64,000 nucleotides of DNA from Candidatus Magasanikiibacteriota bacterium. Its GTDB lineage: Bacteria > Patescibacteriota > Patescibacteriia > Magasanikbacterales > UBA922. The DNA is taken from positions 5,440 through 69,439 of the forward strand of contig JBAYJP010000006.1 of assembly GCA_041665025.1 (NCBI GenBank). Direction: 5' to 3'. The translations under genes were made by a program, and so were the position numbers. Below, one piece after another: positions 34,817 to 62,722 of the stretch. The notes beneath the pieces were generated by a model. That model was not told the origin of the DNA. It did not search any database and saw nothing but the letters and a program-made list of their open reading frames with translations. Each line of letters starts with the position of its first letter. The stretch's first letter is position 1.

Positions 34817-37800
34817 TCAAAACGGAAACAACTCCGCCGGATGCCAATTTTTTAATCCCTGATGAAAAAACATATCAGCAAAACTATCAGCCGACATGTT
34901 ATTATGAGAAAATATGTAATCGCCTTCTGCATGCACAGCAAAATCCATTCTGTTGAACTGCACCGCATCCAAATTCAATGAACCTCCATCAAAATATATA
35001 CCATTGTCATACCATGATGAATATATTTTATCATATGGCTCATCCCAGCCTATCGAACTGTTTGAAATATTCAACTGGCTATTTTTTGCATATATATTTC
35101 CTCCTGGCCGTCGAGAATTTGATATTTCGACTCCATTTAAAATGACTTCTGAATCTCGCAACCACAATGCTGCGCTCTCCGGCGCGCCTACTATTGGATA
35201 TGATGAAACATTTGGAAATGATCCTCCTCTTATTATATCTACATGATTTAACTGTGATATTGAATTATTAAAATATATTCCTCCAAACCAACTATTATCT
35301 GCTCCGGAAATAATCACAGGAAATTCAACTGTCCCTTGCGCGTTAAGCGTACCATCCACCGTCAATAGGCTATATGGAGTAAACAAAAGCGTTGCGCCAG
35401 GCATAAGAGTAAGTGTACTTGAAGCAGAGACTGTCGCGCTTGAAAAAATAAAAGGTGTTTGAGCTTGTATGGTTGTGTCATAGTCAAATACAACTGAACT
35501 GCCATACATTGCACTGGTTGAATTCCCTATAAATGTATTGCCTGAACTTGAATGAGGAAAATTTCCTGCAAAGACTGCAGGGTATGTATGGGGAAATATA
35601 AAATCAGAAAAAATTGAATTATTCACCATAGCATGTGGAACATCTTTTATATAAACACCCTGGTAACCTCCACTCAAATGTATATTCTCCAATGAAACTT
35701 GTCCGCCATTGCTCCATATATATGCATCATTATCAGACGTACGAGATCCCGCGTCATAACTATTGTGAACACTCACGTGATCTAAATCTAGAATTCCTCC
35801 GTCATTTCGTACAAGCTCCGAAACTGATTGGGATGTAGGAAAAAAGCGATTTCCGCCATAGTACATATCAGCATATTGGGCTTTAAATAAACCTCCGCTT
35901 TGCACGTGTATTCCCTGCCAGTCTCCTGCAGCAGGTTCACCTTCACATGAGGCAAGAGTCATAAATGCTTCACACACCTGTACTGTTTGAGGATCTCTAC
36001 GGGACGTCATAATAATATGATGGTCCTGCGCACCTGAAAAGATTAAAGAACCACTGACACTAAATCCTCCAGCATCAAATATGCTAATAATGTTTGAACC
36101 TTGTGCAAATTCAACTGTGTATCCCGTTGGAATAACTACATTATCAATAATATAAGGACTATGCTCTTTTGAAAATACTATGGTAGAAGTATTGGCAAGC
36201 AGATTATTATAATATAACGTAACATTACTTGGAATGTACCAATCTGTTTTGTTGTCTGACTCGGGACTTCCATATACGTCTCCACAATTATTGCTTCTAA
36301 CTCCATAACGCAGAGATTCACTCGTACGCCAATTCGTTGGCCAATTGCCAGGCAAAGCAGAATTCACGCGTTCCATAGGACGAAATACTCCTATTGATTG
36401 ACCACCAAACCAACCAGCTTGTTGATCTGTTTCATCTACAATATTACTTTCACTATCTTTTAACGTGAGATGCGCGCCGCTATCGGACAATGAAACACCT
36501 GGAGGAAATAAGGAGTTAGACTGTTTGCTTGTGATTACTTTTTCATTGCGCTCGACAAGATAATATCCATGTCCTGCAATACTGCCCGCAAGCGGCATAC
36601 TAAACTCTTCATTTTCATATTGTACCTGTAGGGTCCACCCGGATACATCCATAGGTACATCGCTCGGGTTATACAATTCAATCCATTCATCTTGCGCACA
36701 TTTGTTAATAGATGCCACACCCATCCACGCTATCTCATTTATAACCACTGTCTTTGGCCAGTCAACTGCTACGCTTTGATCTTCCCCACTCCACAAAGAC
36801 TCATTGCCTGCCTTATCATATGCTTTTACGCGCATATAATATGATACATAGCGATCTACGTCTGTCATTTCATAACTCGTACTTGTCGTGTGAGATAGGA
36901 GTTTCTGCCACTCTGAACCTGAACCATTTTTGTATTCAATATCAAAATATGCAATACCAGTCCCCGAGTCAGTACTTGTCCATTCACTGTGCAATGTAGG
37001 AGTAGCAAAATCACTTTGTACAAGCTGGACAATAGGCTGCGTTGGTGGCGTACTATCAAGATTGATAACAATATTTGCTCCGGATATTGGTTTCCCTTCT
37101 CCATCCTCAATATGCAATGAAAATACATTTTCACCTTCTGTCAAAACGACCTCTTTGCGCCATGTTGTGCTTGACGCGTATTCCACTCCGTCTGAACTGC
37201 CATTGATAAAAATCTTTTCAACACTCACTGATTTGTCACCTTCAAATGTAGTTGTTGCAGAATTGGTTATCCACGGCGTTTCAGTTGGGAATGAAATACT
37301 AAACCACGGCTCTTCTTCACCAGATTCTGCATTACTAGATTCCTGTGTAGAATCTGACGAAGAATTCGGCGTAGATGAGCCGCCCCCACCGCCATATGAA
37401 GGTGAAACAAATGGTGAAATAATAGTATGCACTACTTCTTCAACTTTTTCCTGAATAATTTTTATACCATGCACGATATCATCCAATGCTCTCTGGTCTT
37501 TTTCAACTATTGTTTCTGGTTTCCACTCCTCTTCAACTTTTTTATCTGCAATAGCTAGATTCAATCTATATATCTCATTTCCAATTTGTTCATATGTGCT
37601 GCCCGTGTATCTCACAATCATCAATTGTAATCCGTAATTCCCTACAACATCTGGAGTATGAACAATGAAGGAAAAAGACGCTGTTTGACCACTAATAACC
37701 ATAGCTTGGTCCATGAGTGCTGGACGCAAGCTTGTAAGCCAGGTCGCGTGTTTGAACTGTACGTTTTTTTCCACTCCCCCAATTACATTTAGAGAAACCT

Positions 37801-38764
37801 GATCAGACCTGTTCCACGCAGTCTTTCCTGTATTTTTTACACTGATTTTTAGTGCGACATCTTTGCCTGGTTCAGAAGTAATATGTTCTGGCGTATTCAA
37901 AATATCTGCATTATACACAGACAGATTGTTTGCTTCTTCTTTCTTCTCCTCCGGTTTTTGTTCTGGTATATTTTCTATTTTTTCTCCCTCAACGTTTTGT
38001 TGTTCTGAAGAAAAGAGTGAAGAAAAAAAGATTTTTACATTGTTCCAGAGAGAGGGCGACGGAGATTGAGATTGCGATTGAGAATTTTGGATTGGTTGGT
38101 TTTCCTGAACACCTAAATTTTTATTGAGTTCGATAAATTTGGATGGGGAGTAACGGTGAGGGGCGTAGCCGGTGGTGCCGGAGTAACCTTTACCGACGCC
38201 ACCTAAAATATCATCCTGAAAAGCTTTAGCATCTTTTACCTCAAAGTGTAGATGTGCATCATAAATACACAACTTAGCAACATCAGCTATGATATCTCCC
38301 TTCTTCACAATGTCTCCATCTTCTACTTTTATATTTGTTAAATGCCCGTAAAGACTATACACAACAGTAGGATTATTTTCAGTCGATGCGGTAATGATAG
38401 TACCATCGGAAGAAAAGACGTCAGGATTTACAACCTCATGCTTTATGATAACCACGCCTCCCCACCCGTGTGAATCTTCTACCTTTTTTCTAACACCATC
38501 GATTATTTCCACCTTATCACATAGTGCCCAGCGAACGCTTTTAACTACTTCGCCGTTAGCAATCGATTTTACCTGAGTACCCGCATCTACCGCAAAGTCC
38601 TCACCTAAGTGTCCCACATACTTATCTGTATATTTTGCGCCAAATCCGTTAGACAAATAATAATCACTAAGTGGCAATAGCATGCCACTGTCAACAACAG
38701 AAAATACTAAAACTGGAATAAAAACAAATAGACCAACAAAGAAAAATATATCCCTCCTAAACAT
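34817..38764 (-). CDS. Secreted 1315-aa protein: N-terminal TM/signal, M23 (LytM-type) peptidase domain, Ig/FN3-like regions, Lamin-tail domain (LTD) and a beta-helix-like C-terminal region
   Basis: M23 motifs HLGEDF...YGHL...HLHFEV; LTD signature NEIAWMG...EWIELYNPSD..VSGWTL. Confidence 0.7.
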   Translation of the reverse strand: MFRRDIFFFVGLFVFIPVLVFSVVDSGMLLPLSDYYLSNGFGAKYTDKYVGHLGEDFAVDAGTQVKSIANGEVVKSVRWALCDKVEIIDGVRKKVEDSHGWGGVVIIKHEVVNPDVFSSDGTIITASTENNPTVVYSLYGHLTNIKVEDGDIVKKGDIIADVAKLCIYDAHLHFEVKDAKAFQDDILGGVGKGYSGTTGYAPHRYSPSKFIELNKNLGVQENQPIQNSQSQSQSPSPSLWNNVKIFFSSLFSSEQQNVEGEKIENIPEQKPEEKKEEANNLSVYNADILNTPEHITSEPGKDVALKISVKNTGKTAWNRSDQVSLNVIGGVEKNVQFKHATWLTSLRPALMDQAMVISGQTASFSFIVHTPDVVGNYGLQLMIVRYTGSTYEQIGNEIYRLNLAIADKKVEEEWKPETIVEKDQRALDDIVHGIKIIQEKVEEVVHTIISPFVSPSYGGGGGSSTPNSSSDSTQESSNAESGEEEPWFSISFPTETPWITNSATTTFEGDKSVSVEKIFINGSSDGVEYASSTTWRKEVVLTEGENVFSLHIEDGEGKPISGANIVINLDSTPPTQPIVQLVQSDFATPTLHSEWTSTDSGTGIAYFDIEYKNGSGSEWQKLLSHTTSTSYEMTDVDRYVSYYMRVKAYDKAGNESLWSGEDQSVAVDWPKTVVINEIAWMGVASINKCAQDEWIELYNPSDVPMDVSGWTLQVQYENEEFSMPLAGSIAGHGYYLVERNEKVITSKQSNSLFPPGVSLSDSGAHLTLKDSESNIVDETDQQAGWFGGQSIGVFRPMERVNSALPGNWPTNWRTSESLRYGVRSNNCGDVYGSPESDNKTDWYIPSNVTLYYNNLLANTSTIVFSKEHSPYIIDNVVIPTGYTVEFAQGSNIISIFDAGGFSVSGSLIFSGAQDHHIIMTSRRDPQTVQVCEAFMTLASCEGEPAAGDWQGIHVQSGGLFKAQYADMYYGGNRFFPTSQSVSELVRNDGGILDLDHVSVHNSYDAGSRTSDNDAYIWSNGGQVSLENIHLSGGYQGVYIKDVPHAMVNNSIFSDFIFPHTYPAVFAGNFPHSSSGNTFIGNSTSAMYGSSVVFDYDTTIQAQTPFIFSSATVSASSTLTLMPGATLLFTPYSLLTVDGTLNAQGTVEFPVIISGADNSWFGGIYFNNSISQLNHVDIIRGGSFPNVSSYPIVGAPESAALWLRDSEVILNGVEISNSRRPGGNIYAKNSQLNISNSSIGWDEPYDKIYSSWYDNGIYFDGGSLNLDAVQFNRMDFAVHAEGDYIFSHNNMSADSFADMFFHQGLKNWHPAELFPF

Positions 38765-39427: not shown

Positions 39428-40144
39428 TTATAAACGTGGACGATTGTTCCGATCACGATTCCACATGGGTGGATTATATATAATATAACGTTGTATATTA
39501 TGAAACGCCGTTTCATTTCGGATAATATTATCATAAAACGACCGTTGCCATTTGAATTGTGGAAAACCAATTTCGTGGATACGTTTCGACGTGGTCGTTT
39601 TCAATGCGCCGATAATATTTGATAATGATAATATGTTGTATGAACCCGGTGCATGTAGGGACAGGTCTAGACCTGTCCCTACACCACGTTCCATGTCAAT
39701 CATCATATTGAGGTCATTGCCGCGACCTGCCCCTACGGACCCCGCATTATCCAAATCCATTGCAATACCACCGGCATGACCCACCCCTACACCATCGGCA
39801 CAATCCATATCAATATCATTATTCAAATCCATTGTAATATTATTTCCATTGACGACCGTATCGTCACATATTTCCAATATCCCATGCACATGGTTCGGCA
39901 TAACCACAAACCCGTGTGATCGTATATACGAATATTGGTGCGACAACCATTCCCATTGGCGATATAGGACCGTGCCCACACGATTCACGCACATTACACC
40001 ATTATATACACCACCAAAAAATGAAATCCTACCCTCTACACAGATCGTAATAAAATAACACCTATTATTTTTATAATCAAAACCCCGTAAACGATTATTT
40101 TTTCTATTATTCCTCCTATACATATACGCATAGTATACATGCAA
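39428..40144 (-). mobile_element. REP-associated tyrosine transposase (RAYT, IS200/IS605-like Y1/HuH family) carrying an in-frame insertion of about 85 aa
   Basis: YFITICVEGR...VVMPNHVHGIL (HuH) ... FKWQRSFYDNIIRNE (catalytic Tyr helix) ... YIIYNPPMW. The order and spacing match E. coli YafM-type RAYTs, apart from the insert between the HuH motif and the Tyr helix. Confidence 0.75.
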
Positions 40145-40559: not shown

Positions 40560-41300
40560 CTCGTCCGTTTTAAAATTTAGAAACCACGTCGTCAACCAGC
40601 AAGAGTGCGATGTGGATATTGAGAAGTAAATTTACTCCTTAGTACCCACATCACATCTCTCGACCGCGAGAAGTTTTTCGGGGGCACTCGCTCCCGACTC
40701 GCGGTCAAGCCGCAAGCGCCGCGTTTCGCGGTAAGGAAAGGGGGACTCATGTCCCACCTGCGGCTCGCGCTGTTCGCCGCGATCGCGGCGCTGGCACTCG
40801 TCCTCTCGGGCTGCGTCGAGCCCGAGGACGAGACGAATGAGTCTCCCGACACGACGCAACAGCCGTCGGGAGATGTGCAGGCGCCCCTCTGCCAGAAGAA
40901 GGCGGACGGGACCTGCCGCGACGACGTCGCCCCCTCCCCGGGCGACGAGATCGTCGGTGACGACACCGACGGGGAGACGGACGAGGACGTCCTCCAGCCG
41001 AACGGCTGCGAGGCGGTGGAGTGGACCGAGATCACGATCGGCCACGACATCGCCCTCTGCCACGCCGAGAACGGCATGGGCAGCGAGGGCGAGTGCGAGT
41101 TCGCCATGTACGAGCAAGATGGGCAGTGCGTCACCGACTGCATGCCCAACTTCTCGGGGCGACCGACGAACGAGATGGAGGCGGTCCCTGGTGGATTCGC
41201 CTACAACCACCCGTTCCTCGGGCGGGTCATCTGCATCATGCAGTGACCCGACCACACCCGACTGAGCTCGTCCGTGGACTGGGATGCGTCGCGCACCGGT
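40560..41300. other. High-GC island 2, about 740 bp, immediately upstream of the RAYT and 3' of the giant gene
   Basis: Abrupt compositional shift. Contains the inverted repeats GACCGCGAG..CTCGCGGTC and GATGTGG..CCACATC. Confidence 0.6.
40749..41246 (+). CDS. Lipoprotein (165 aa) encoded on high-GC island 2
   Basis: Signal peptide with lipobox LVLSGC; a GGGGG RBS; strongly GC-biased third codon positions. Overlapping ORFs in other frames are GC artefacts. Confidence 0.55.
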   Translation: MSHLRLALFAAIAALALVLSGCVEPEDETNESPDTTQQPSGDVQAPLCQKKADGTCRDDVAPSPGDEIVGDDTDGETDEDVLQPNGCEAVEWTEITIGHDIALCHAENGMGSEGECEFAMYEQDGQCVTDCMPNFSGRPTNEMEAVPGGFAYNHPFLGRVICIMQ

Positions 41301-41333: not shown

Positions 41334-41366
41334 AAAAAAAATCTCCCAAATTGGGAGATTTTTTTG
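41334..41366. terminator. Bidirectional terminator AAAAAAATCTCCCAA-ATT-GGGAGATTTTTTT directly 3' of the giant gene
   Basis: Perfect 9-bp stem flanked by an A-tract and a T-tract. Confidence 0.75.
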
Positions 41367-41377: not shown

Positions 41378-44300
41378 TTACGGAATGACAATAATTGCAC
41401 CTTTATATTTTGTAAAATGATAATCATGCATGGTTGAATCATCACATTGATGATCAGTAGTATCATTAAAAAATGCGGTCGGATTGCCATTACCATCTAC
41501 CCCATTACACCACCCCCAATTATCAAGCACCTGAACGCCGGGTTTGAAGATACAGATACCAGTCTCTTCGGTAATTTCACTGCGTTCCATGAGACGAGCG
41601 TATGCTTCGTCTGCGTATGAGAGATTATCACCAAAATATTTTCTCTTTATGGTGTCATTTCTCAAATCACCTACTTCAATATCTGTCGTGTTGCAATAAT
41701 AGGTATGCTCGAATTCAAAATAATTTTCCTGGCACGCACGCGGTGCATCTCCAAAGATTGGATCCTCAATGTTATCATCACAAAAGTAGCCATCCCCAAA
41801 TATCTGGACGCATTCCTCATCTTTTTTACATGTAATGGGAGGCTCGCCCTGAGCCCAGTTACGTTCACGTTCATCTCCTGTACATCTACCTACTGTTTTA
41901 TTACCGTCTGTATCATCACAATAAGGCTTGTGATTCCGATACATGCCCTTTACATCTTTGTTTTGCACGTCCGTGCCGTCGTCCCAATTCACCATCACTC
42001 TGCGTATAGGCATGCGATTATCATCCGCAAACGCAAAGAACCGAGCATTGACCGTAACACTTCCCTGCTGGATAAATGGATCGGGCGTACCTCTTCCGAA
42101 ATCGCTTTTATCTTCATCCCCGTCTTTCCCATCGTCATCATAATCTTTCATTGTATAATTTTTCATGTTAATCGTGATATTGTCTGCTTCTCCTGGAATA
42201 CAATCTTTGTCTCTCCTCGAACATAGGCTCGGGTTGATAGAGAAAATTTGTGGAGGTTTGGTATCGCCAATAAAATCTTGACCTCCTAAATTACTGCTAT
42301 AATCTTCTCCGACATATTCACCTCCTACATAGTCTCCAAGTGTGTCCACTACTGCATCATCTCCAAAAAGATGATTTTGCGACTTAATACTAAAATACTT
42401 CAAAAATAAATCATTCAAACTCAGGTAATACAGATTTGCGTCTTGATATGAAAAATTATCATCCTGTTCTTGTTCTTGCCTATCTACTGCGTGAGTATTT
42501 ATTCCTTTAAGCGTGGCATAACTACCTCCTGTGGTTTTTATTTCTTCACATATAGTTGGAACTCCTCCCAGACGATGGCTATCTGTTTCGTCGCAACTAT
42601 AAGGGAACCCATCGAATACGAGATTGGTGAATGTGTATGAAAGCCAATAAGGATTTCCAATCCCAAGCCATGGATCAAGAGGGCTCGTTCCGCGAAGTGA
42701 GAGAGAAGCATAAGGTTGGAGTTGAGTGGTTTTGAAAATCTGACTAAAAAACCCTGATGACGCTAGATATTCACCGTGTTCCCAGATGCGATCTGTCCAT
42801 GCCTTATTTGTAGTATCTCCAATGTCTCCGCTTTCGTCATATACCTTTACAAATTCATTACAGCTCTCATTCAACTCGACAATAACCGCAAATCGGATGC
42901 CGTGTCCTTCTCCATCATCATTTTCATATCCATTACACCAGCGAGATACATATCCAAGAAATTCACCATTTTTATTAAAGTCAAGGCCAATGGCAATCCA
43001 ACTACCTTCTTTTTTGCCGTCATTTTCATCCTGATGAAGATTAAATTTACATTCAGCCTGCAGAGGATCGGAGTCAGCATTACTGGGTAGACTTACTTCC
43101 TGGCCAGCTATTCCATTCACCAGATCTGTGTTAGGCAAAAACTCAGGCGTTTGCTTTTCAGTATTAGTCAATGGGTAGTATTCATGATATACACCCATAT
43201 ATCTATGCTCTATCTCATTGAGTGTTTGTAAAGCAGGATACCTTTTATACACTTCAAGTATCTTACCGGAAAACTCATATGGACTTGAATCATCATATCC
43301 CTGAAACGACACTAATCCATTTTCATTATCCTTATCCAAAAGATATGTGTACAAGCCTGCGTCCGCAGCACCATCGTCATTAAAAAAATCTATATACCCT
43401 CCATCACTATTACCTCTAATATAATGATATGTTAATGGAACTCTCTCATGAAAGGCAATTTTATCAGGTTCTCTTCCACCTGGGCCTGCAATTCCTCTCA
43501 AACCATTAAAATCAATTCTAAACGCATCTGTCAACAAAGGAACAGGTGCTCCGCCCTCGAGCTTACCTGGATAAGCAACAGGAACAAAATAAATGGCCTT
43601 TATATCTTTTTCTCTTATTTTTTCTTCAAGCGTCGAGCGATATATCTTTGGATAGCTATCGGAAAATGCTAATTTAGTCATCGAAGCTAGTGTCATCGAT
43701 TCTCCTAACACTCTGTCCACGGTTAAAAACGAAGTTTCAACCTTATAATCTATTCCATGCTCTAACTCCATGCCTATAAGAGTCCTGTCTCGAGATGTTT
43801 CATCGCTGTTTTCTATTCCATCGAGGTCACTCATGAAAAAATTCTTGGCATCTGTATCTGGGAGATCTCGAGCTTCTGCAGCCTTATCCCACAAACGCGG
43901 AGGATGCATAAATGTTCCCAGCTCGACAGTATCATACAGCTCAGCATATGTGCCCTCATTTTTTTCAAAAATAGAAGGAGCAAAAATCTCAGGTACGAGT
44001 AATGATGCATCATCTTTGGCCACTTGGCTCTCCAAACTTGTGATATAATCTACACTATTAAAAGCTAGATAGGGATATAATTCTCCTCCTCTTGGATTCA
44101 TGTCCATTCGCAGTACTGTCGCGTTTGTGCCTATTTTCCTCCACGCCCATATATTCATAAGTGCAATAGGAGTGTTTTCTTCATATGGTCCTCGCCATGC
44201 ATCCCTATTGAGATCATCAGCCCAACACATAATATATCTATACATCCCCGTATGACCACAACTTTCTCCGTCATCAAGATTGAGAGGACAAATGCCGCCT

Positions 44301-47300
44301 GCATTTGTTTTAACATTGGGACAATTTTCAGCTAGGCCAGCACTACCCCATGGCAAATTTTCTGAATCCATAAACCGGGTGTAATCTCTATTCATCACTA
44401 TCTGGTGGGCCGGGGGTGCATCTGGATTTGTCTTTAGAGTAAAATTTCCATCTGCAGGTCCTGTTCCTCCGGGCTCAAAACTATATGTACCACCAAAATC
44501 TACTTCTGAATACGCACCTCCGACATTATTACTCAAACTGCAATAATATTCGCCGCCATTGCTTTCACTATCGAGTGTGGGAAAATATCCGGCATCCTGG
44601 TAGGCATTGTAGTTGTCAACAGTAGAAGCAGATGATTGTATAGGAAACCAGGTAAGGCACGCATACTGTTCATCCATACGAACCATGCTCCCGGCTGGCC
44701 CAAGTGGTCGGCTCAGATCATATTCAAGACATAGCCCTTTAAGCCCAAAATATGATGCCTGTTGTTTGATCATACTACATGTTCCTGTGCTACCGCATTC
44801 ATCATTGGTCATACAAGGGAACCCATTTATTGCGCCATCTCCTACACAAACTCCCCCGGTACTTACATGTGCCGGCGTGTCTCGTACTGGCCAATAATCA
44901 ATAGTGCCGTCTTTATATTCTATTTTTCTATATTCACACGAACATTCTTCAACTATAGAGCCATCCTCTTTTACTACTCGTTGACATACATTCGCTTGCG
45001 AATATATTGGTTTTTTTGTCGAGTAATCCCAACGATAATACTGATTGTCCTCCCCTGACGTTTTTTTGTCTCTTTGTTCCGGCTGTTGAGTTAGCGCCAT
45101 TTGAGTAGAAAAAGGACTGCCTTGCTCCGGGTATGCTTTACATATGCCTGTTTCCAAATAAATAGTCATCTCTTCAACTGAATTAACCTCATCGGGAAAC
45201 ATTCCACCGAGTGGATATGTACACCGTTGTTTATAACATCTACCCCCATCATCAAAACCGCACGCATCGCCGTCTTCTTTTTTAAATTTGCTGTCGCTAT
45301 CCACCTCACTGCAGCCTACGTCTGGAAAATCTGCGTCCCCGTCGCCATCTTTATCTGCCATAAAAAATGAATCATTCATCAGATAGGTCAGGTAGACTTC
45401 GTTATCCAAGACAACAGACTTGTAATTTCCAATATTATACTTGTTGAATAAAGAATATCCCGAATATTCAAAACTACCCCAACCTACATTGCGAATGACA
45501 TATTCTTCCTCTGATAACAATGTGTTGTTAAGTGATATGTCTGCCCAACCATCATCGGCGCACGCCCCGTTGCTATTGAGTTTATTACATGTTCCGTAGT
45601 CTTGACATATCCGCTGAGGCACATTATTTTCATCATATACGGTCATCGATGTCCGGCACGCCAACCACTCACTACACTCACGATCACGTTCTACTTTGAG
45701 AAGTACATTGGTATCACGCGTTCCTGCGGTGGCAATAGGAACAAGCGCGTACTTTTTGCTCATACTATCTGCATACGTCAGTACGCTATTATATATCTTG
45801 TTTGGATTTTCAGTCATGTTGAAGAGCACGCATCCTTCTTTTTGGCTCGCTTTGCTATCGCATTCTCCGGTACGTTCAAACAAGCGATCATTATTTATCA
45901 CATAATAAGGTTCACCATCCATATTCCCCGACGTATCTGCTGGATCTATGAGCTCAGTACACCCACTGTATTCTGTTTCGCACATCCCCACATACCCTTG
46001 GTATCCAGGGGTGCCCTGGGACAAAAGTCCATATTCTCCGCTTCCCGAGAGCTGATTTGGATAGCACGCTGTGAGGCCTTTTTTGCATGTTTCGCCTGAA
46101 ACGGTACACTCATTGTCACTGCTACAATAGGTATTAGTACCTCCGCCTGCTTCAGTTTGGCACTGTCCAACGTTATCCATAAACCAGCCACTATATTGTA
46201 TACCACTTATTTCGACATTATCGCGATATGTGCATGATTTAGCACCAATAACAGCCGGATCTTTGAAATAAGTGAGATTATTTCCATTTCTATACTCAGA
46301 ACACCCGACCAAATCTTCACTGCATAATGTCTGGTCATAGTGATCCGGATTATTGAGGACCATAGTATCTGAAAAACTATACGCGGTGTTACTCTGCGCG
46401 TCTGGATTTGTCTGCTGTTGTAATCCTACTTTCTCGCATCCCACATGTTCATCGCTACATACAAATTCAGAACGATGAGTAAGGTAAATCGTATTGGAAT
46501 CAGCAGGAACAACAATAGTAGACGTCACTACATACAAATCGTCAGTATTACCCGTACAAAGACCTACCATGCCAGTTCTCTCTATACACCCACTGGGGAG
46601 ATACACCTTATTGTGAAATTCAGTTGCTCCTGGATCATCGCTATAACTGGGTACGACAACCGCAGTATCTATATAACAACTTGTTTCTCCTTTTCGTATC
46701 GTACAACTATATGTTTCAAAATTAGTAGCGTCAGAATATATTTTTGCCTCGCATTTCGATGCATCACCTGGATACGTAGGACTTGTCGTACCCCGTTTAC
46801 ATAATACATTGTACGCATTCATTTGCATGGCATCTTCACCTGATACAGTATTGTATGTATCTACCATCGCCTTACACCCAACTGCCTCGACACGGCACAA
46901 ACGGTCAAAACCAGACAAAGCAACAGGCTCATTATCTCGTGTCGTGTATGCACGACAGCCCAATGCTTCGCCAGGAAATGCGTCAAGCGGTGTAGAATCG
47001 CATAAAAGTGGCACATCATACCCTTCGCGTGTTTTCCATGAATTTTTTATCAGATAAAGATGGTCATCATTTTCCTGTCCAATACGAACAATGCGGACAT
47101 TATCAATAAAGTACGAGGCAGATTCATTGGTGTCCAAAAACAATGACGCCGTGCCACTCGCCATACCCGTAAACTGTACAGGGCCCAATGTATATTCCTG
47201 CCAATCATTGCCAATAGGCGCTTGTATCGAAGTATTGGTAAGCGGATCAAGCGTAAATGTTCCTTTTGTTGCTCCGTCTTGTCTAAACGAAATGTCCAAT

Positions 47301-50300
47301 GCCTGAGTCTGTCCGCGCGCCCAGAAACTCAACTCATACCATGCACCCGACTGCATACGCTCGGCATTAAATGTATATGAGGCGTCACCGGTAATGCGCA
47401 AAGAATGAAGGCCGACTTGCGTTGCCTCTGCTTCAATAGAAGTATTGCCTGGCCACCCTTCCTTTGCCCGTGTCAACGCATCTGTATCATCCCCATCCGG
47501 TTCAAAATTCATGGAATGAACTTCAATATTATTCCCCTGATTGCCAATATATGAACGGCATCCATTTGCTGTCGCAGGGCATGAATCTGCTTCGCTTTTT
47601 ATGGAATAATATACGCATGCGCCTTGCGCGGGATTACTCGGATCTGTTTGATATGTTCCGCCATTATAACAACGATTGCACACGCTATTCACACTATCCC
47701 ATGTACCACCTTTCTGCGCACATAACGTATTTTTTGCAACCCCTCCGACAGACCCTGATCCGGATAAATATTCATCCTCGTACAAATTTGAAATGCTTTT
47801 ACGCAATGGACGGCAGTCCAAAGACACTGACACGGTATCATTTTTCAAACGATAATATACGCCTCCGGAAGCATCATAATACGCGCGGCAGTCAGGACTT
47901 GTATTAGAAGCATATGGATTTTGCAAATGCAGATTATATTGTGCTGCATTACAAATTGCATAATTATTTTCCAAGGAAGTTTTACTATCATCGGCGTATG
48001 CCGGAGAGTTACTCGCAAACTCAGCAACCGCACCACTTGCCAGACCAAGTCCTGAAATATAAAGTGCCTGAGCCGCGTCAATTTTTGCAAGCGTGTGTTT
48101 TTGCAATATAAATCCCTGACTTGCAGAACCTTCCCACGTATAAAATACTTTTGCATTTTCACCTTCGGGTCGTTCACAATATTTCAAATTACTATAATAT
48201 TCTAGTGACTCGCCTCCGCCGGTGAGCGCATCAATATTGGTAAATTCATCACACCCTACATACTGAGCTGCGCACGTCTGACCGCCTGAAGGACCTGTAG
48301 GAATAAAATACATGGGAAATTGAGATTGTTCGAAATTGGATTCTTCTTGTTTAAACGTGTCATATCCAATACACTGCTCATTGCATAAATTTTCTGTGGT
48401 TGCAATGCCCGGAATTTCTATACCCCCTTGCGCCGGAGTATACCCTTTGCATCCCACTTCGTCTTGTACACACACTTGCGCAAAATTACTGCAACTTTCC
48501 GGTTTATCTTCAAATCCAACAAGATCCGCGCGAGTCTGCGGCCAATCTATGGCAGGCGTACCAATATTTTTATCATAACAACCCAGATACTCTGGAGCTT
48601 TTTTCAATCGAATTGATTCTCCATTCAAAGCATCTTTGAAAACACTACATCCTTCTGCGTTACCGGGACATGAAGCGTAGGAAGATAATTTGTCATTAAA
48701 ATAAAGCATTTGCTCTCTGCCAAGAAGTTTATCCTCGATATTTACTTGGCCACTATTCTTCCATGTACCATCTTCATTTTGTTCACTACTATATGCACGG
48801 CATCCTTTTGATTCCACACTGCATGCGCCATAGTCGAGGGTGCGTGAAAGATACGATGATACAGAGCCCGAGACTGAATTGACATATGTTTTGCATGTGT
48901 TGTAATACGCCGGACAACTGTCTCCCGGCATATGCCATACATTTTTTTCTTTTGTACAATATCCATACGAAATGCACTGGCCTTTGTCGTCTTCTTTGAG
49001 ACATGTTGAAAAATCTACGCACTCCTGCGTTCGCAGGGCTGTACCTTCTTGTTGCAATTGGGGACCCCACACGCGCGCTTCACAGCGAGCCTCAGGAGCT
49101 TTGATAATCCAATTGGGATCAATGAGGTGACAATATGGGAAAGCAGCACTTGGTCTTCCTGAGGGATCGCACTCGGTAAATCCGTCTACGACCTTCTTTA
49201 GTGTCACGGGGTTATCTGGATCAGATTTAAGTGCAGCAATTTCAAACCCAAGCGGTAAAATACGTGCTTTTCTAAGTTTTTGAATATTTGAATAACAATA
49301 TGCCTGACTATAGCAATAGGGCAAATTCGTATTATCTACATCACGACCTGGCGGTATGAGTAGCCAATTTTCATGAAGCTGTCCACTCTTCATTGCTTCA
49401 TCTATGGTAAGAGGATCCCCTGTTTGTGCCAAATTGACTGCTTCTACAAGCTTACCATCCATAACACAATTATTGAGTCCTGGCGCCGGCGTTTGCGGAC
49501 ATGCACTGAATTCAGTTACCAAATCATAGGTGTCGAGGCTGCGCTGAGGAACCGTTGCAATAAGATATGAAAAAGCTTTTTCTGCCGCCTGACGATTGTA
49601 ACTAATATTTGAAGCAAAAAAATCAGTAACTCCTGAGGATTCGCTATCACCACCTGAAGGAAATAATCCCCCATCCATTATATTTTGTAAAAGAGAAGAC
49701 ACGAGCGTATTAGCAAAGACTGACAGCGCCATGGGCAAAATCTGTAAAGATCCTGAACCATAGATACCTGCGATTTGACCGGCCGTCATGTCTCCTTGAT
49801 TTTTTGCAGTCACTGACTTTGTTTCTTCTTGGATTACTTGGGCTGGCGTTCGAATCTTACCTGAGATAATGTCAGCAACTGGTTTGAAGCCATTTCCCTC
49901 TTGACGCGCTTGAGTTGCGTCTATCTGCGATTGGGTCACCACACGATCCAACTTCCCCATCAGTCCAAGCGCCGCTCCAAAATCTGAGTCTGAAACACTT
50001 AGAGAGGCAGTGAAACGCTCGGAAATAGCGTCCTTACTTCCGTACATATCATCAACTTGCTCCCAATTACTCGTGAATTCAGACCAATTACAACGAGGAG
50101 CTGGACCGCCTTCGTTTCCATATTCTGAATCATATATTCTCTGCAATCCAACCTGTAGCCCCACTTGCACCCGAAGATCCGGTGGTTTACACAAATCAAG
50201 TCCGAGAGGCTCCCCAAACTGCTGAATGGCTCCCGCAGCACTATCCAATGCAGTATTTCCAAGATATGAACCAAAACCATCTTGAAATGCGAGTGCGCTT

Positions 50301-50599
50301 TGACCCTTCCCACCGGAGGCAACATACTTGGCAGAATCATAAGCCAACTTACGCATAAAATATGATGCGCCATTGACCAGAGCGCCGAGAGCTGCACCCA
50401 CAAGAGTATTTTGAACTTGTTCCCACGTCCATTTCCCGGAAAAAGCTGCAGTAATCGCGGCATCCATCTGCGCGTGTGCTCTTTGTGGCAACGCAAAAAA
50501 ACCGAGCAATTGCACTCCCAAAAATAATGATATAACAAAAGAGATAGACAATTTACGGGAACGATTGGAGGAAAACCACATACATCTTTTAAGTAACAA
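41378..50599 (-). CDS. Giant (3073 aa) secreted Cys-rich protein with a signal peptide and a galactose-binding/CBM-like domain among many Cys-rich modules
   Basis: Uninterrupted 9.2-kb ORF. The N-terminal hydrophobic segment FVISLFLGVQLLGFFALPQRAHA is signal-like. The CBM-like segment is (...WYELSFWARGQ...FIDNVRIV). Cysteines are frequent and patterned. Confidence 0.75.
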   Translation of the reverse strand: MLLKRCMWFSSNRSRKLSISFVISLFLGVQLLGFFALPQRAHAQMDAAITAAFSGKWTWEQVQNTLVGAALGALVNGASYFMRKLAYDSAKYVASGGKGQSALAFQDGFGSYLGNTALDSAAGAIQQFGEPLGLDLCKPPDLRVQVGLQVGLQRIYDSEYGNEGGPAPRCNWSEFTSNWEQVDDMYGSKDAISERFTASLSVSDSDFGAALGLMGKLDRVVTQSQIDATQARQEGNGFKPVADIISGKIRTPAQVIQEETKSVTAKNQGDMTAGQIAGIYGSGSLQILPMALSVFANTLVSSLLQNIMDGGLFPSGGDSESSGVTDFFASNISYNRQAAEKAFSYLIATVPQRSLDTYDLVTEFSACPQTPAPGLNNCVMDGKLVEAVNLAQTGDPLTIDEAMKSGQLHENWLLIPPGRDVDNTNLPYCYSQAYCYSNIQKLRKARILPLGFEIAALKSDPDNPVTLKKVVDGFTECDPSGRPSAAFPYCHLIDPNWIIKAPEARCEARVWGPQLQQEGTALRTQECVDFSTCLKEDDKGQCISYGYCTKEKNVWHMPGDSCPAYYNTCKTYVNSVSGSVSSYLSRTLDYGACSVESKGCRAYSSEQNEDGTWKNSGQVNIEDKLLGREQMLYFNDKLSSYASCPGNAEGCSVFKDALNGESIRLKKAPEYLGCYDKNIGTPAIDWPQTRADLVGFEDKPESCSNFAQVCVQDEVGCKGYTPAQGGIEIPGIATTENLCNEQCIGYDTFKQEESNFEQSQFPMYFIPTGPSGGQTCAAQYVGCDEFTNIDALTGGGESLEYYSNLKYCERPEGENAKVFYTWEGSASQGFILQKHTLAKIDAAQALYISGLGLASGAVAEFASNSPAYADDSKTSLENNYAICNAAQYNLHLQNPYASNTSPDCRAYYDASGGVYYRLKNDTVSVSLDCRPLRKSISNLYEDEYLSGSGSVGGVAKNTLCAQKGGTWDSVNSVCNRCYNGGTYQTDPSNPAQGACVYYSIKSEADSCPATANGCRSYIGNQGNNIEVHSMNFEPDGDDTDALTRAKEGWPGNTSIEAEATQVGLHSLRITGDASYTFNAERMQSGAWYELSFWARGQTQALDISFRQDGATKGTFTLDPLTNTSIQAPIGNDWQEYTLGPVQFTGMASGTASLFLDTNESASYFIDNVRIVRIGQENDDHLYLIKNSWKTREGYDVPLLCDSTPLDAFPGEALGCRAYTTRDNEPVALSGFDRLCRVEAVGCKAMVDTYNTVSGEDAMQMNAYNVLCKRGTTSPTYPGDASKCEAKIYSDATNFETYSCTIRKGETSCYIDTAVVVPSYSDDPGATEFHNKVYLPSGCIERTGMVGLCTGNTDDLYVVTSTIVVPADSNTIYLTHRSEFVCSDEHVGCEKVGLQQQTNPDAQSNTAYSFSDTMVLNNPDHYDQTLCSEDLVGCSEYRNGNNLTYFKDPAVIGAKSCTYRDNVEISGIQYSGWFMDNVGQCQTEAGGGTNTYCSSDNECTVSGETCKKGLTACYPNQLSGSGEYGLLSQGTPGYQGYVGMCETEYSGCTELIDPADTSGNMDGEPYYVINNDRLFERTGECDSKASQKEGCVLFNMTENPNKIYNSVLTYADSMSKKYALVPIATAGTRDTNVLLKVERDRECSEWLACRTSMTVYDENNVPQRICQDYGTCNKLNSNGACADDGWADISLNNTLLSEEEYVIRNVGWGSFEYSGYSLFNKYNIGNYKSVVLDNEVYLTYLMNDSFFMADKDGDGDADFPDVGCSEVDSDSKFKKEDGDACGFDDGGRCYKQRCTYPLGGMFPDEVNSVEEMTIYLETGICKAYPEQGSPFSTQMALTQQPEQRDKKTSGEDNQYYRWDYSTKKPIYSQANVCQRVVKEDGSIVEECSCEYRKIEYKDGTIDYWPVRDTPAHVSTGGVCVGDGAINGFPCMTNDECGSTGTCSMIKQQASYFGLKGLCLEYDLSRPLGPAGSMVRMDEQYACLTWFPIQSSASTVDNYNAYQDAGYFPTLDSESNGGEYYCSLSNNVGGAYSEVDFGGTYSFEPGGTGPADGNFTLKTNPDAPPAHQIVMNRDYTRFMDSENLPWGSAGLAENCPNVKTNAGGICPLNLDDGESCGHTGMYRYIMCWADDLNRDAWRGPYEENTPIALMNIWAWRKIGTNATVLRMDMNPRGGELYPYLAFNSVDYITSLESQVAKDDASLLVPEIFAPSIFEKNEGTYAELYDTVELGTFMHPPRLWDKAAEARDLPDTDAKNFFMSDLDGIENSDETSRDRTLIGMELEHGIDYKVETSFLTVDRVLGESMTLASMTKLAFSDSYPKIYRSTLEEKIREKDIKAIYFVPVAYPGKLEGGAPVPLLTDAFRIDFNGLRGIAGPGGREPDKIAFHERVPLTYHYIRGNSDGGYIDFFNDDGAADAGLYTYLLDKDNENGLVSFQGYDDSSPYEFSGKILEVYKRYPALQTLNEIEHRYMGVYHEYYPLTNTEKQTPEFLPNTDLVNGIAGQEVSLPSNADSDPLQAECKFNLHQDENDGKKEGSWIAIGLDFNKNGEFLGYVSRWCNGYENDDGEGHGIRFAVIVELNESCNEFVKVYDESGDIGDTTNKAWTDRIWEHGEYLASSGFFSQIFKTTQLQPYASLSLRGTSPLDPWLGIGNPYWLSYTFTNLVFDGFPYSCDETDSHRLGGVPTICEEIKTTGGSYATLKGINTHAVDRQEQEQDDNFSYQDANLYYLSLNDLFLKYFSIKSQNHLFGDDAVVDTLGDYVGGEYVGEDYSSNLGGQDFIGDTKPPQIFSINPSLCSRRDKDCIPGEADNITINMKNYTMKDYDDDGKDGDEDKSDFGRGTPDPFIQQGSVTVNARFFAFADDNRMPIRRVMVNWDDGTDVQNKDVKGMYRNHKPYCDDTDGNKTVGRCTGDERERNWAQGEPPITCKKDEECVQIFGDGYFCDDNIEDPIFGDAPRACQENYFEFEHTYYCNTTDIEVGDLRNDTIKRKYFGDNLSYADEAYARLMERSEITEETGICIFKPGVQVLDNWGWCNGVDGNGNPTAFFNDTTDHQCDDSTMHDYHFTKYKGAIIVIP

Positions 50600-50698
50600 A
50601 GTTATAATGTTATAAAGTTCCGAGTTATAAAGTTCCGAGTTATAAATATATAAATTTTTCTATAACTTTATAACATTATAACTTTCAACTTTACAACC

Positions 50699-51394
50699 CT
50701 ACATTTGTGGCGTACTTGAAGTCTGTCCATCTGTATTCGTCGGCATGGATTGTTTTTGCATAATGCTTTCAACCATAGACATAAGTTCTGCATCGCTTAT
50801 GCTATTTAATTTTTCTTGTGATATCTGCCCAGTTTGCAAAAGTAATTGTCGTACGTACTCTGGATTTGAAGTAAGCGCGGACATGTCTAGACTACCACCA
50901 GATACCGTAGATGACGTGGAACCCTGATTTAATTCTCCCATACTGCCCATAACCACATCAGCCACAGTCCCTACCCCGCTTACCAAAGGAGAAATCAGTG
51001 AGGCAGGAGTGCTACTCGGGCTCGTGTCGCTTGTCTGCGAACATATTTTTCCCTCTGCACATAGTGGATCCTTGCCCTGGTCTATTTCCACTTTGTCTTG
51101 CAATCCATCTGAGTCTGTGTCAGGAAGATAAGGACTTGTCTGATAAAAATTCAATTCTTCATAATCATTTATCCCATCGCGATCTGTGTCTATCTGTTGA
51201 AGCCTAATTTCTTCGTCAAATTGAAAGGAAAGGTCGACCTCTTTGGCTACACGGCGTGAAGCAAATGGTCCATAAATAGAATTGCGCATTTGAAGAAACC
51301 CCAGCGCAACGGTCGTAATAGCAAAAATGAGCAATAAAACAAAACCTGTCTTTTGCCCATTTGACAATTGTTTGTAGTAGCCTAATTTTGACAT
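50699..51394 (-). CDS. Membrane-anchored protein with two EF-hand/thrombospondin-type-3-like Asp loops (DTDRDGINDYEE, DTDSDGLQDKVE) and a Ser/Thr-rich tail; first gene of the giant-protein operon
   Basis: Single N-terminal TM helix plus the sequence motifs; 100 bp upstream of, and co-directional with, the 3073-aa gene. Confidence 0.55.
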   Translation of the reverse strand: MSKLGYYKQLSNGQKTGFVLLLIFAITTVALGFLQMRNSIYGPFASRRVAKEVDLSFQFDEEIRLQQIDTDRDGINDYEELNFYQTSPYLPDTDSDGLQDKVEIDQGKDPLCAEGKICSQTSDTSPSSTPASLISPLVSGVGTVADVVMGSMGELNQGSTSSTVSGGSLDMSALTSNPEYVRQLLLQTGQISQEKLNSISDAELMSMVESIMQKQSMPTNTDGQTSSTPQM

Positions 51395-51520
51395 CTTGCT
51401 AAGTTTTCTAAGTATCTAAGTTTTCTAAGTATCTAAGTTACAAGTCTATAGTAATAACTTAGTCAACTTAGCGAACTTAGTAAACTTAATTAACTTAGTC
51501 TAGTATACCAAAAAATAAGA
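51395..51520. promoter_or_regulatory. Symmetric heptamer array upstream of the giant-protein operon: CTAAGT x5, a central spacer, then ACTTAG x5
   Basis: Read directly from sequence. The same heptamer family occurs at 22965-23080 and 40165-40205. Confidence 0.5.
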
Positions 51521-51533
51521 AAACTCACAAAGA

Positions 51534-52388
51534 TTATGTGAGTTTTTTGGCCAAAGTTATCCACTGTTGCACATTGAGTTCCTGCGCCCGTGCTTTTTCA
51601 TTGTCTATTATCTCTTTTAAGAAGCTTTCCATTTGTAATTTATCTCTTTTCAACCCATCTGCTAAGTTTTTTGCCAACTGTTTTCGTTTGTTGGCAAATC
51701 CAATTCTTGCAATTTCAAAAAATCTCTGATTAAAATCTCTGTTCCCTGTTCCTTGTTCCCTAATCAATATATGTACCACAGCTGAATCAACCGCGGGCAT
51801 TGGCCAAAAATTACCTTTAGGAACTTTGCATACAATTTTTGGCTCACCATAGTATTGGACTGACAAGGACAACAAACTCATATCTCCTGGTTTGGCAACT
51901 ATTCTTTCAGCAACTTCTTTTTGAACCATGACCGTAATGCTTTCTGGTTTGTGTTCAAGCTCGAGCAAAACGCGCAGGATATGTGAGGTGATTTGATAAG
52001 GTAAATTAGCAATCACTTTATAATTTTTGATACGTGATACGTGATACGTGATGAGTGATAAAACATCTCCCCAAATAATTTCAATATCTCCTGTCTCATT
52101 GTCTAATCTTGTAATCTTAAAATCTTTTAATCTTTCGTCCCAATACTGTTCCAACCGTCGTTCAATCTCAAACGCTTTCACATGTGCACCTCTCTGTGCT
52201 AATTCAAACGTCAGCACGCCAAAACCTGGTCCTATTTCAATAACTGTGTCCCCTTTCCTGACATCCGCTGCTTCAATCATTTTGTGAATAGGCGCATCTG
52301 AAATCAAAAAATTCTGGCCATACTTTTTGGAAGGGATAAGACCACATTCTTTGCAGAGTTGTTTCAGTTTAGTTGGCGTGAGTTGCAT
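51534..52388 (-). CDS. rsmA: 16S rRNA (adenine1518/1519-N6) dimethyltransferase RsmA/KsgA
   Basis: YGQNFL...IEIGPGFG...NLPYQITS motifs. It contains an in-frame GTGATAC x3 tandem at 52028-52060. Confidence 0.9.
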   Translation of the reverse strand: MQLTPTKLKQLCKECGLIPSKKYGQNFLISDAPIHKMIEAADVRKGDTVIEIGPGFGVLTFELAQRGAHVKAFEIERRLEQYWDERLKDFKITRLDNETGDIEIIWGDVLSLITYHVSRIKNYKVIANLPYQITSHILRVLLELEHKPESITVMVQKEVAERIVAKPGDMSLLSLSVQYYGEPKIVCKVPKGNFWPMPAVDSAVVHILIREQGTGNRDFNQRFFEIARIGFANKRKQLAKNLADGLKRDKLQMESFLKEIIDNEKARAQELNVQQWITLAKKLT

Positions 52389-55475: not shown

Positions 55476-56237
55476 ATGTCTATACCATTCTACGAAGAAA
55501 AAAACTTCACAAAAATAGAGGAAAAAATTGGTGTATCATTCAACAACAAAGATATTTTGGTCCAAGCCCTTGTTCACCGATCATACCTCAACGAACACCG
55601 AGACTTTCCTTTGGCTCATAACGAACGTCTGGAATTCTTGGGAGATGCGGTGCTTGAACTGATCGTAACAGAATTCCTCTTTGAAAATTACTTAAATCCC
55701 GAAGGAGAACTTACCAATTGGCGTGCGGCTTTGGTAAATGGCACCAACTGCGCATTAGTATCGCATGAAATAGGACTTGATGAATTTTTGTTCTTGAGTC
55801 ATGGGGAATCAAAAGATGCAAATACCAAGGCGCGGGACTATATACTTGCCAATGCGCTTGAAGCACTTATTGGCGCGATTTATATAGATCAAGGCTGGGA
55901 CATTACGGAGCAATTTGTTATACGCTGGGTAGTAACCAAACTTCCCGAGGTACTCGAACAAGGACTCTGGATGGATCCAAAATCTCGGTTCCAGGAAGCG
56001 GCCCAAGAGATTGTCGGCGTCACACCGACATACAAAGTAGTAAAAGAAGAAGGGCCTGATCATGCAAAACAATTTGTCATTGCGGTATATCTCGATAAAG
56101 AACAAATAGCAACCGGTGAAGGGACAAGTAAGCAAGAAGCACAGACTTCCGCTGCAGAAGCAGGGCTCAAGGCGAAGGGATGGAAAGGACCAAAAATACA
56201 GATACTTACACGAAAACCAGAAGATCCAATTGGATAA
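55476..56237 (+). CDS. rnc: Ribonuclease III
   Basis: RNase III signature ERLEFLGDAVLEL plus a C-terminal dsRBD. Confidence 0.9.
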   Translation: MSIPFYEEKNFTKIEEKIGVSFNNKDILVQALVHRSYLNEHRDFPLAHNERLEFLGDAVLELIVTEFLFENYLNPEGELTNWRAALVNGTNCALVSHEIGLDEFLFLSHGESKDANTKARDYILANALEALIGAIYIDQGWDITEQFVIRWVVTKLPEVLEQGLWMDPKSRFQEAAQEIVGVTPTYKVVKEEGPDHAKQFVIAVYLDKEQIATGEGTSKQEAQTSAAEAGLKAKGWKGPKIQILTRKPEDPIG

Positions 56238-62591: not shown

Positions 62592-62722
62592 TTTACCTAG
62601 ACTATGTATGAAGTAATATGATACAAGTATACCATATATACACAAACAAAAAAATGCCTCTCGGCGATTGTTTGTGTGTACAACTCTCGACCCAAAAACA
62701 AAAAAACCACCTATCATGGTGG

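Follow-up and report, generated by a model that had tools for sequence, protein, structure and literature searches.

A giant cysteine-rich exported protein and its small partner with calcium-type loops: a conserved gene pair of the Magasanikbacteria

Magasanikbacteria are widespread uncultured bacteria of the Candidate Phyla Radiation (CPR) whose lifestyle and partners are not known. A typical CPR genome measures ~1 Mb, so that the single giant gene described here takes up roughly 1% of the DNA, and the question raised by its locus is what such a lineage obtains for that outlay. The locus lies in a 64-kb stretch of contig JBAYJP010000006.1 (64,000 nucleotides; "the window" throughout, with positions counted from its first letter), in which open reading frame (ORF) calling finds on the minus strand an ORF of 231 amino acids (aa) at 50699..51394 and, following it, a very long ORF at 41378..50599. 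The initial annotation took the two for an operon of a membrane-anchored protein with calcium-binding loops and a giant, cysteine-rich secreted protein, placed it under a symmetric array of short repeats, and likened the pair to adhesin-type surface machinery.

Here we draw on homologue searches, gene order at orthologous loci, family alignments and predicted structures to ascertain what the pair encodes and how far a role can be assigned to it. Hundreds of species retain a full-length giant with almost all of its cysteines, beside the same small gene, a pattern that points to a central, lineage-defining structure of the cell envelope. An anchored surface-recognition complex is a plausible reading of the pair, and adhesin-type machinery is a reasonable guess. 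The repeat array proves to be a property of the genome rather than of the operon, and treating it as such averts a wrong regulatory inference.

A linked gene pair found across the lineage

The two genes occupy the following positions.

50699..51394, minus strand: small partner gene, 231 aa, immediately preceding the giant gene.
41378..50581, minus strand: giant gene, 3,067 aa plus stop codon, most likely starting at ATG 50581.

The small gene is as first described, starting at 51394 on the minus strand. The giant frame is likewise real; its start, initially put at 50599 for a product of 3073 aa, has to be moved. The first possible start codon, TTG 50599, lies inside a repeat array, and the product from ATG 50581 is 100% identical to a 3,067-aa database protein of Candidatus Magasanikbacteria (P0001) and fits the N-terminal consensus of the family, 'M-x8-K'. 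With this start the spacer between the two genes measures 117 nt, not the 100 bp given earlier.

That a frame of 9.2 kb might be an assembly artefact or a decaying pseudogene, a possibility raised at the outset, has next to no likelihood. The frame is uninterrupted and 100% identical in an ENA contig and in a Logan contig of SRR6484324 (assemblies that perhaps share reads), over 1,000 relatives are colinear with it, 87 of its cysteines are conserved, and its codon-position GC content (0.51/0.43/0.34) resembles that of other host genes. We found no support for an artefact; the sole caution is that one contig (L088) ends within the array that fills the spacer, at window position 50692.

A first search returned 311 relatives of the giant. 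Among the 120 listed, nearly all measure ~2,700–3,250 aa, with few partial sequences, at 33–49% identity, and all are named 'hypothetical' and come from Magasanikbacteria or Patescibacteria. When 1.84 billion cluster representatives were searched, 1,254 clusters (50% identity) matched aa 350–1200 of the giant, with E <= 1e-30 for 1,077; the top 150 of the 1,254 align colinearly at ~350–1200, and the full-length ones span ~2,500–3,500 aa. With each GTDB species represented by a single genome, 474 genomes proved to contain relatives of the giant, and all named records belong to Magasanikbacteria or Patescibacteria. The assignment of the window to a CPR bacterium thus agrees with P0001 and its relatives, which are from Candidatus Magasanikbacteria. 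A profile search with the small protein found at least 1,426 relatives of 206–330 aa, a family similar in size and taxonomy to that of the giant. The two-gene module therefore characterises the whole Magasanikbacteria lineage of the CPR. Many of the records with giant relatives are titled 'uncultured Gammaproteobacteria bacterium', apparently a placeholder or a mislabel by the submitter.

Gene order at the orthologous loci shows that the two genes are a true pair, as had been supposed from the single locus. Of 86 loci, 81 have the small gene next to the giant, on its upstream side and in the same orientation; among the other five, four are cut too short upstream of the match for a test, and L060 does have sequence there. 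The gap between the stop codon of the small gene and the start codon of the giant has a median length of 6 nt over 54 loci (117 nt here), and every locus examined carries one copy of the pair. This linkage, the 6-nt median spacer and the similarity of the two families indicate an obligately linked two-gene module, probably translationally coupled. The surroundings recur as well, the order Sua5 – DUF4015 – RsmA/KsgA – small gene – giant being found again, complete or incomplete, at the five distinct orthologous loci with annotation. The initial annotation called the pair uncharacterised, and it is so for the giant family: all sources call its members 'hypothetical', Pfam, NCBIfam and PHROGs give no hit, and a literature search found no paper on it. 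The family itself thus appears to be undescribed; the idea that giant CPR surface proteins serve in host attachment is already in the literature for Vampirococcus.

Architecture of the two proteins

The giant divides into seven regions, for which identities are means over relatives.

50471..50581, minus strand: signal peptide or signal anchor, aa 1–37, ending ...FFALPQRAHA/Q; no other segment reaches membrane-grade hydrophobicity, either in the protein or in the family average.
49535..50464, minus strand: N-terminal region, aa 40–349, with two cysteines only, predicted to be helical; 44% identity.
47537..49534, minus strand: cysteine-rich conserved core I, aa 350–1015; 46% identity.
47027..47536, minus strand: predicted CBM22/CBM4-type beta-jelly-roll module, ~aa 1016–1185, from a fold match; 37% identity.
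44537..47026, minus strand: cysteine-rich conserved core II, aa 1186–2015, with many invariant cysteines; 36% identity.
43082..44536, minus strand: hypervariable insert, aa 2016–2500, with low alignment occupancy; 12% identity.
41381..43081, minus strand: conserved C-terminal region, aa 2501–3067; 21% identity for aa 2501–2776 and 34% for aa 2777–3067.

The signal peptide that the initial annotation had read in the giant is present and of the classic type (MWFSSNRSRKLSISFVISLFLGVQLLGFFALPQRAHA/Q). The only other hydrophobic peaks, at aa 58–76 and 272–290, are below membrane grade, and extra membrane helices in the N-terminal region were rejected on family-averaged hydrophobicity, which peaks at 0.98 and 1.16. 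At the other end, the protein has neither an LPXTG motif nor a hydrophobic tail; it closes with ...HFTKYKGAIIVIP before the stop codon.

Cysteine is the most conspicuous feature of the sequence. The giant has 102 cysteines (3.33% of its residues; the figure for the remaining 40 ORFs of the window is 0.77%), and 87 of these are present in 90% or more of the 58 full-length sequences compared. They are patterned throughout the protein, as noted from the start: a C-x5-G-C-x2-[YF/hydrophobic] motif occurs nine times, together with one C-x8-G-C variant, and core I contains four copies of the form C-x5-G-C-x2-[YF], with a fifth at aa 1001–1011 adjoining the jelly roll. Six poorly conserved cysteines make up three close pairs (1332/1342, 2087/2098 and 2108/2119), as is expected of local disulfides. 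The hypervariable insert has only two cysteine pairs, non-conserved and at its start, and in 57 relatives its length varies between 102 and 547 aa. A shorter giant subfamily of ~2,500–2,600 aa and ~33% identity (L062–L064, L070–L074, L082 and L085) has lost sequence mainly in this insert (102–206 aa) and in the C-terminal part, which indicates that the insert is dispensable in length. Within the C-terminal region the consensus FFA.ADDN..PI..V.VDWGDG ... H.Y.C ... VQVLDNWGWC is PKD-like by eye, with no Pfam hit and no significant match in the PDB, and the extreme C-terminus is conserved as WT.Y.G.IIV.P.

Sequence-based domain searches return almost nothing for so long a protein. Pfam (E <= 0.1), NCBIfam and PHROGs gave zero matches for the giant, BLAST of the 3,067-aa sequence against itself found no internal repeat, and a profile of 33 full-length relatives matched, among PDB sequences, only the carbohydrate-binding module (CBM) of a xylanase, at E 0.54. 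The statement that no catalytic motif can be recognised also stands, as neither Pfam, NCBIfam nor the PDB profile search gave a catalytic match, and no conserved acidic or nucleophile motif was recognised by us.

Predicted structure adds one module. An AlphaFold2 model of aa 1–1200, built from 26 sequences, has a mean predicted local distance difference test score (pLDDT) of 61; confidence is good for aa 350–540 and ~770–1185 and poor for aa 1–349 and 540–770, the first of these poor parts being modelled as helices at pLDDT 25–60, mostly 30–50. Searched against the PDB with Foldseek, this model matches CBM22, CBM4, CBM16 and porphyran-binding modules at E ~5e-7 and target TM-scores of 0.65–0.68; the search ranked the whole model, and the CBM matches dominate it, with no PDB match above them, so that the confidently modelled stretches at aa 350–540 and ~770–1015 received no fold of their own. 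One homologue of the giant (P0015) carries PF02018, the window's own giant being below any Pfam threshold. At the level of fold, the prediction confirms a CBM-type beta-jelly-roll, and the module that the initial annotation had described as CBM- or galactose-binding-like keeps its fold and changes its place, from residues 1000–1130 to ~1016–1185. The likeness to CBM22/CBM4_9 modules (PF02018; PDB 4xuo, 1h6x, 8xmz) is one of fold, a beta-jelly-roll of the ~150-aa type; unlike those modules, it is embedded in 3,067 aa without a recognisable glycoside hydrolase. A second model, of aa 1868–3067, has a mean pLDDT of 49.6 (last 290 aa ~45–85, aa 1868–2015 low) and no significant Foldseek match in the PDB (best E 0.048), and at this confidence nothing is concluded from it.

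The small protein has two features that can be placed on the map.

51284..51346, minus strand: predicted membrane helix, aa 17–37, GFVLLLIFAITTVALGFLQMR, conserved and hydrophobic in 6 orthologues.
51086..51190, minus strand: two DxDxDGxxDxxE loops, aa 69–80 and 92–103, of the thrombospondin type 3 (TSP3) calcium-binding motif (PF18884).

Both bear out the earlier description of a membrane-anchored protein with two TSP3-like Asp loops. The loops, DTDRDGINDYEE and DTDSDGLQDKVE, lie C-terminal of the membrane helix, and their Asp and Glu positions are invariant across the 6 orthologues. They are followed by an invariant C-x5-C pair (as G-x-DP-x-C-x5-C), by a linker rich in Ser, Thr and Pro and, at the end of the protein, by a conserved helical segment. 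The match to PF18884 (TSP3_bac) has E 3.5e-5 and 24.0 bits, the Pfam cut-off being 25; a precomputed match to the same family is present in many homologues, and NCBIfam gives weak matches to CglD and MtsD. Binding of calcium by the two loops is accordingly suggested by motif. The small protein resembles the TSP3_bac proteins (PF18884; CglD and MtsD of Myxococcus) in its DxDxDGxxDxxE loops and as an envelope protein, and differs from them in having two loops only, in being a bitopic protein of 231 aa and in its own conserved C-terminal segment.

Surface recognition, scaffold or enzyme

We propose that the two genes encode a lineage-specific two-component ectoprotein complex of the Magasanikbacteria cell envelope. 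The giant would be exported via Sec through its N-terminal signal and would form, outside the cell, a non-repetitive multi-domain body with roughly 45–50 disulfides. The small protein would be a bitopic membrane protein whose outside part comprises the calcium Asp loops, a disulfide-capable cysteine pair, a flexible Ser/Thr-rich linker and a helical end, and it may tether or organise the giant at the membrane, probably via the helical N-terminal 350 residues of the latter. The CBM-type jelly roll and the hypervariable insert (aa 2016–2500) could then recognise a glycan or other surface ligand on a partner cell, on a host cell or on the bacterium's own wall. This picture of a Sec-exported, disulfide-stapled ectoprotein, held by a calcium-loop partner and equipped with a CBM module and a hypervariable insert as its recognition parts, is the one we favour, tentatively, and we place it a little short of an even chance.

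Speaking for it is the pattern of conservation, in which an insert at 12% identity sits in a scaffold of 34–46% (21% for aa 2501–2776). So do the N-terminal signal, the abundance, conservation and pairing of cysteines, the close linkage of two families alike in size and taxonomy, the invariant loops and C-x5-C pair of the small protein, and the wide occurrence of the giant in a recurring neighbourhood. Four considerations weigh on the other side. The hallmarks of adhesins are missing, in that the giant has no tandem repeats, no Pfam adhesin domains, no LPXTG motif and no C-terminal anchor. About 55–60% of the modelled residues are of low confidence and over half of the giant is without a reliable model, so that catalytic or other domains could be hidden in it. 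The CBM-type jelly roll is a generic fold that serves protein binding too. Finally, conservation over the full length and housekeeping neighbours agree at least as well with a structural role in the envelope as with a host-specific adhesin.

This last consideration is the substance of an alternative in which the giant would be a lineage-specific wall, S-layer-like or spacer scaffold that gives the envelope its shape or stability, its calcium-binding partner would be a membrane tether, and no other cell would be recognised. The pair is present in 474 species representatives, in single copy at each locus examined; the giant is conserved over most of its length with a fixed architecture and size; the neighbourhood of housekeeping and envelope genes recurs; and TSP3-type calcium loops are common in envelope-associated proteins, of which the weak NCBIfam hits to CglD and MtsD are a reminder. 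We nevertheless hold a pure scaffold to be rather unlikely. The giant contains no S-layer homology (SLH) domain or other S-layer or wall-binding Pfam domain, and a single hypervariable insert with a carbohydrate-binding-type fold is more typical of recognition proteins. S-layer proteins are, moreover, typically poor in cysteine and much smaller than the giant, and an S-layer protein in the strict sense was rejected for want of any SLH, other Pfam or NCBIfam hit and in view of the 3.33% cysteine of the giant.

A second alternative, which we judge improbable, casts the giant as a secreted or surface enzyme or toxin machine that attacks or harvests polymers such as polysaccharide or cell wall; on this view the catalytic part has diverged beyond recognition, the CBM-like module directs the giant to its substrate, and the helices near the N-terminus might act on membranes. 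CBM22 and CBM4 modules are normally appended to glycoside hydrolases, large parts of the giant are without a fold assignment, and a DUF4015 gene for a putative glycosyl hydrolase lies 1–4 genes upstream, here and at 3 of the 5 annotated orthologous loci. However, RsmA sits between DUF4015 and the pair, so that this linkage may be mere synteny. Searches of Pfam, NCBIfam and the PDB by profile gave no catalytic family, no conserved acidic or nucleophile motif was identified, and toxins are rarely single-copy, universally conserved and conserved over their full length.

Returning to a surface-recognition complex, the known systems offer likenesses rather than a match. Giant membrane proteins of the CPR bacterium Vampirococcus have been proposed to mediate host recognition and attachment (PMC8080830); those of Vampirococcus lugosii measure 1,392–4,163 aa and contain recognisable interaction domains, among them WD40 and PKD (PMC8080830). 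The giant of Magasanikbacteria shares with them that a very large exported protein is encoded in a small CPR genome, and departs from them in having no Pfam domain or repeats and in having 87 conserved cysteines, a fixed architecture throughout the lineage and an obligately linked small partner.

Compared with adhesins of the RTX/BAP/LapA/SiiE and LPXTG classes, the pair is alike in size, export, a possible carbohydrate-binding module and calcium motifs. Unlike the RTX/BAP/LapA/SiiE adhesins, the giant has no tandem Ig-like or cadherin-like repeats and, by Pfam and NCBIfam, no RTX nonapeptides and no signal for a type I secretion system, and the calcium loops of the pair, unlike those of giant adhesins, are on a separate small protein. 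An adhesin of the RTX/BAP/LapA type was rejected since there is no internal repeat and no RTX or HemolysinCabind hit, and the signal is N-terminal and of the Sec type instead; no genes for an ATP-binding cassette transporter, a membrane fusion protein or TolC occur among the neighbours (Sua5, DUF4015, RsmA and AspRS, in the window and at the annotated orthologous loci). A sortase-anchored LPXTG protein was rejected too, the giant having neither LPXTG nor a hydrophobic segment beyond its signal peptide. Clear homology to a known adhesin or S-layer family, which the initial annotation had named as grounds for refutation, was looked for in the giant with Pfam, NCBIfam, self-BLAST and the LPXTG motif, and none was found. 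The pair may thus be likened to known adhesin classes in its working and is not a member of them.

A bolder form of the recognition reading, possible in our view and still doubtful, would make the pair the core of an undescribed host-contact apparatus that defines the Magasanikbacteria, with a rigid, disulfide-stapled, non-repetitive ectoprotein of 330 kDa, a calcium-dependent partner holding it at the membrane, and the insert and CBM-like module determining the partner cell or glycan to be targeted. If the pair is indeed a device for contact or recognition, it would be a target for cryo-electron tomography, for proteomics and for the antibody-based enrichment of Magasanikbacteria cells. The hypervariable insert would become a candidate determinant of host range and a readable marker of it in an uncultured lineage, the pair would be the cellular counterpart, in function, of a phage receptor-binding protein, and the giant would hold a large new set of disulfide-rich folds.

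Mirrored word arrays and other features of the window

The sequences that flank and separate the two genes contain the following elements.

51520–51546, minus strand: terminator-like hairpin of the upstream rsmA/ksgA gene, a consensus match only.
51502–51530, minus strand: promoter-like site TTGTGA-17-TG-TATACT, a consensus match only, overlapping the rsmA/ksgA hairpin.
51396..51500, no strand: array of 5 x CTAAGT and 5 x ACTTAG (one degenerate), between the promoter-like site and the ATG of the small gene.
50598..50697, no strand: second mirrored array, built of AAGTTATAA words and containing a perfect inverted repeat of 22 nt; it takes up the spacer between the two genes.
41335..41365, minus strand: intrinsic terminator hairpin after the giant, with an A run, a 14-bp stem and a U run; -16.3 kcal/mol, z -3.68.

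The terminator is the strong one that the initial annotation had seen at the end of the giant gene. The mirrored CTAAGT/ACTTAG array upstream of the pair is also real, with two corrections: it spans 51396–51500, and one word of its distal arm is the degenerate TTAAGT. Its proximal arm has five CTAAGT words at a spacing of 8–9 nt and its distal arm five words at a spacing of 9 nt; it stops 2 nt short of the ATG of the small gene, and its predicted fold is a segmented hairpin (-33.1 kcal/mol, z -4.05) which, if transcribed, would stand in the 5' leader. The spacer array, absent from the initial annotation, folds at -29 kcal/mol (z -3.76), and its word TTATAACTT recurs at 59916–59984. No U tract follows this second hairpin, which makes a transcription terminator unlikely.

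Could the CTAAGT/ACTTAG repeats be iterons, bound by a dedicated regulator of this operon? The heptamer AACTTAG occurs 20 times in the window, where 7.75 +/- 2.8 are expected; the words cluster at a start codon just downstream of a promoter-like site, and they are kept while the spacers between them vary, as in clusters of binding sites. The remainder of the window, however, makes this very improbable. CTAAGT arrays are found also at 22951–23086, downstream of relA/parB, and at 40167–40201, upstream of a transposase-like gene, and many other intergenic regions, the gaps between tRNA genes and the scpA–scpB spacer among them, are occupied by arrays built on different words. Among the 86 orthologous loci, 66 lack an array in the vicinity of the small gene and the other 20 use different words; the five orthologous arrays inspected are in part mirrored and in part direct only, and their placement with respect to the promoter and to the upstream gene's terminator varies, on either side of the latter. 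With a period of 8–9 nt, furthermore, successive words come to lie on different faces of the helix. The occurrence of the word elsewhere and the 66 loci without an array imply that the array is not a conserved operator of the pair, and the claim that it is the operon's own regulatory array is abandoned.

Tandem arrays of 7–9-nt words, often in mirrored pairs, with a different word at most loci and some words re-used, are instead a feature of the intergenic regions of the window at large. They cover 722 of 6,982 intergenic bases (10.3%), as against ~2 bases (~0.03%) in first-order shuffles, and 0.9% of coding bases, and the intergenic regions fold better than shuffles (mean z -3.5; 15 of 23 below -2). 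Besides those at the pair, examples are found at the following places.

7828–7937, 11568–11670, 22951–23086, 28598–28721, 40167–40201, 52404–52499, 54361–54828, 55316–55436, 56280–56748 and 59916–59985: tandem word arrays.

Their sites include the spaces between tRNA genes and between scpA and scpB, a place beside the terminator between relA and parB, and the region upstream of the transposase-like gene. The scpA–scpB spacer measures 124 nt here (28598–28721) and 3 nt in a relative (L001); it consists of a mirrored array of TTCTAATT and AATTAGAA, folds more strongly (z -9.0) than any other spacer filled by an array, and shows that arrays insert inside operons. Spacers filled by arrays in this genome are short in relatives. 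The array upstream of the pair is, in sum, one local case of a habit of this genome and lineage, that of intergenic repeats which form hairpins and evolve fast, and at most such arrays may affect the stability or processing of mRNA; the window has an RNase III gene at 55476..56237.

Two known classes of repeat come near to these arrays. In Beggiatoaceae, Cyanobacteria and Bacteroidetes, intergenic regions contain direct repeats of the heptamer TAACTGA, in many cases immediately before a start codon (PMC4679880). Like these, and like repetitive extragenic palindromes and bacterial interspersed mosaic elements (REP/BIME), the arrays of the window are made of short words, are intergenic, form hairpins and are inserted even in operons. 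In contrast to TAACTGA arrays, with one word in direct repeat, they use many words, usually mirrored, with variable spacers; in contrast to REP/BIME, with one conserved palindrome per family, they are many-worded, with one word per locus and some re-use. Rfam, run on the window and on the GC-rich island described below, returned only tRNAs and sub-threshold noise, and a literature search on arrays of this kind in Patescibacteria found nothing specific. Mirrored intergenic word arrays thus form an unexplained class in the Magasanikbacteria lineage, with other words in related genomes and no description found in the searchable literature.

The transposase-like gene (39428..40144, minus strand) encodes a homologue of IS200-like tyrosine transposases and of REP-associated tyrosine transposases (RAYT), with NF047646 at E 1e-14, which is below the cut-off, the HUH motif MPNHVHGI, a C-terminal WQRSFYD... 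and a low-complexity insert rich in Gly, Asp and Met. An array of CTAAGT x4 stands immediately upstream of its start. A RAYT/IS200-like HUH gene adjoining a CTAAGT array recalls REP/BIME with their RAYT, a likeness in adjacency.

Between this gene and the terminator of the giant lies an island of ~600 bp (40690–41300) with ~65–70% GC in a 40% GC genome. Its ORF at 40749..41246 (plus strand) encodes an acidic protein of 165 aa that has 9 cysteines and begins with a lipoprotein signal (...LALVLSGC). GC at its three codon positions is 0.66/0.44/0.92 (0.51/0.43/0.34 in the giant), a pattern characteristic of a high-GC donor. The ORF has no homologue but itself and is present in both assemblies, and we regard it as a candidate for recent horizontal transfer, the source of which may be a high-GC neighbour or host.

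Between the giant and aspS, 34817..38764 (minus strand) encodes an exported protein of 1,315 aa with Peptidase_M23, FN3-like and Lamin Tail Domain regions, a candidate secreted peptidoglycan endopeptidase; the gene is absent at this position in two relatives (L001 and L005). The window holds three more large proteins of envelope type, all encoded on the minus strand: a signal-bearing protein of 1,005 aa with 18 cysteines and no Pfam hit (15053..18070), a DUF11-containing protein of 669 aa (57882..59891) and a DUF4012 protein of 912 aa (59988..62726).

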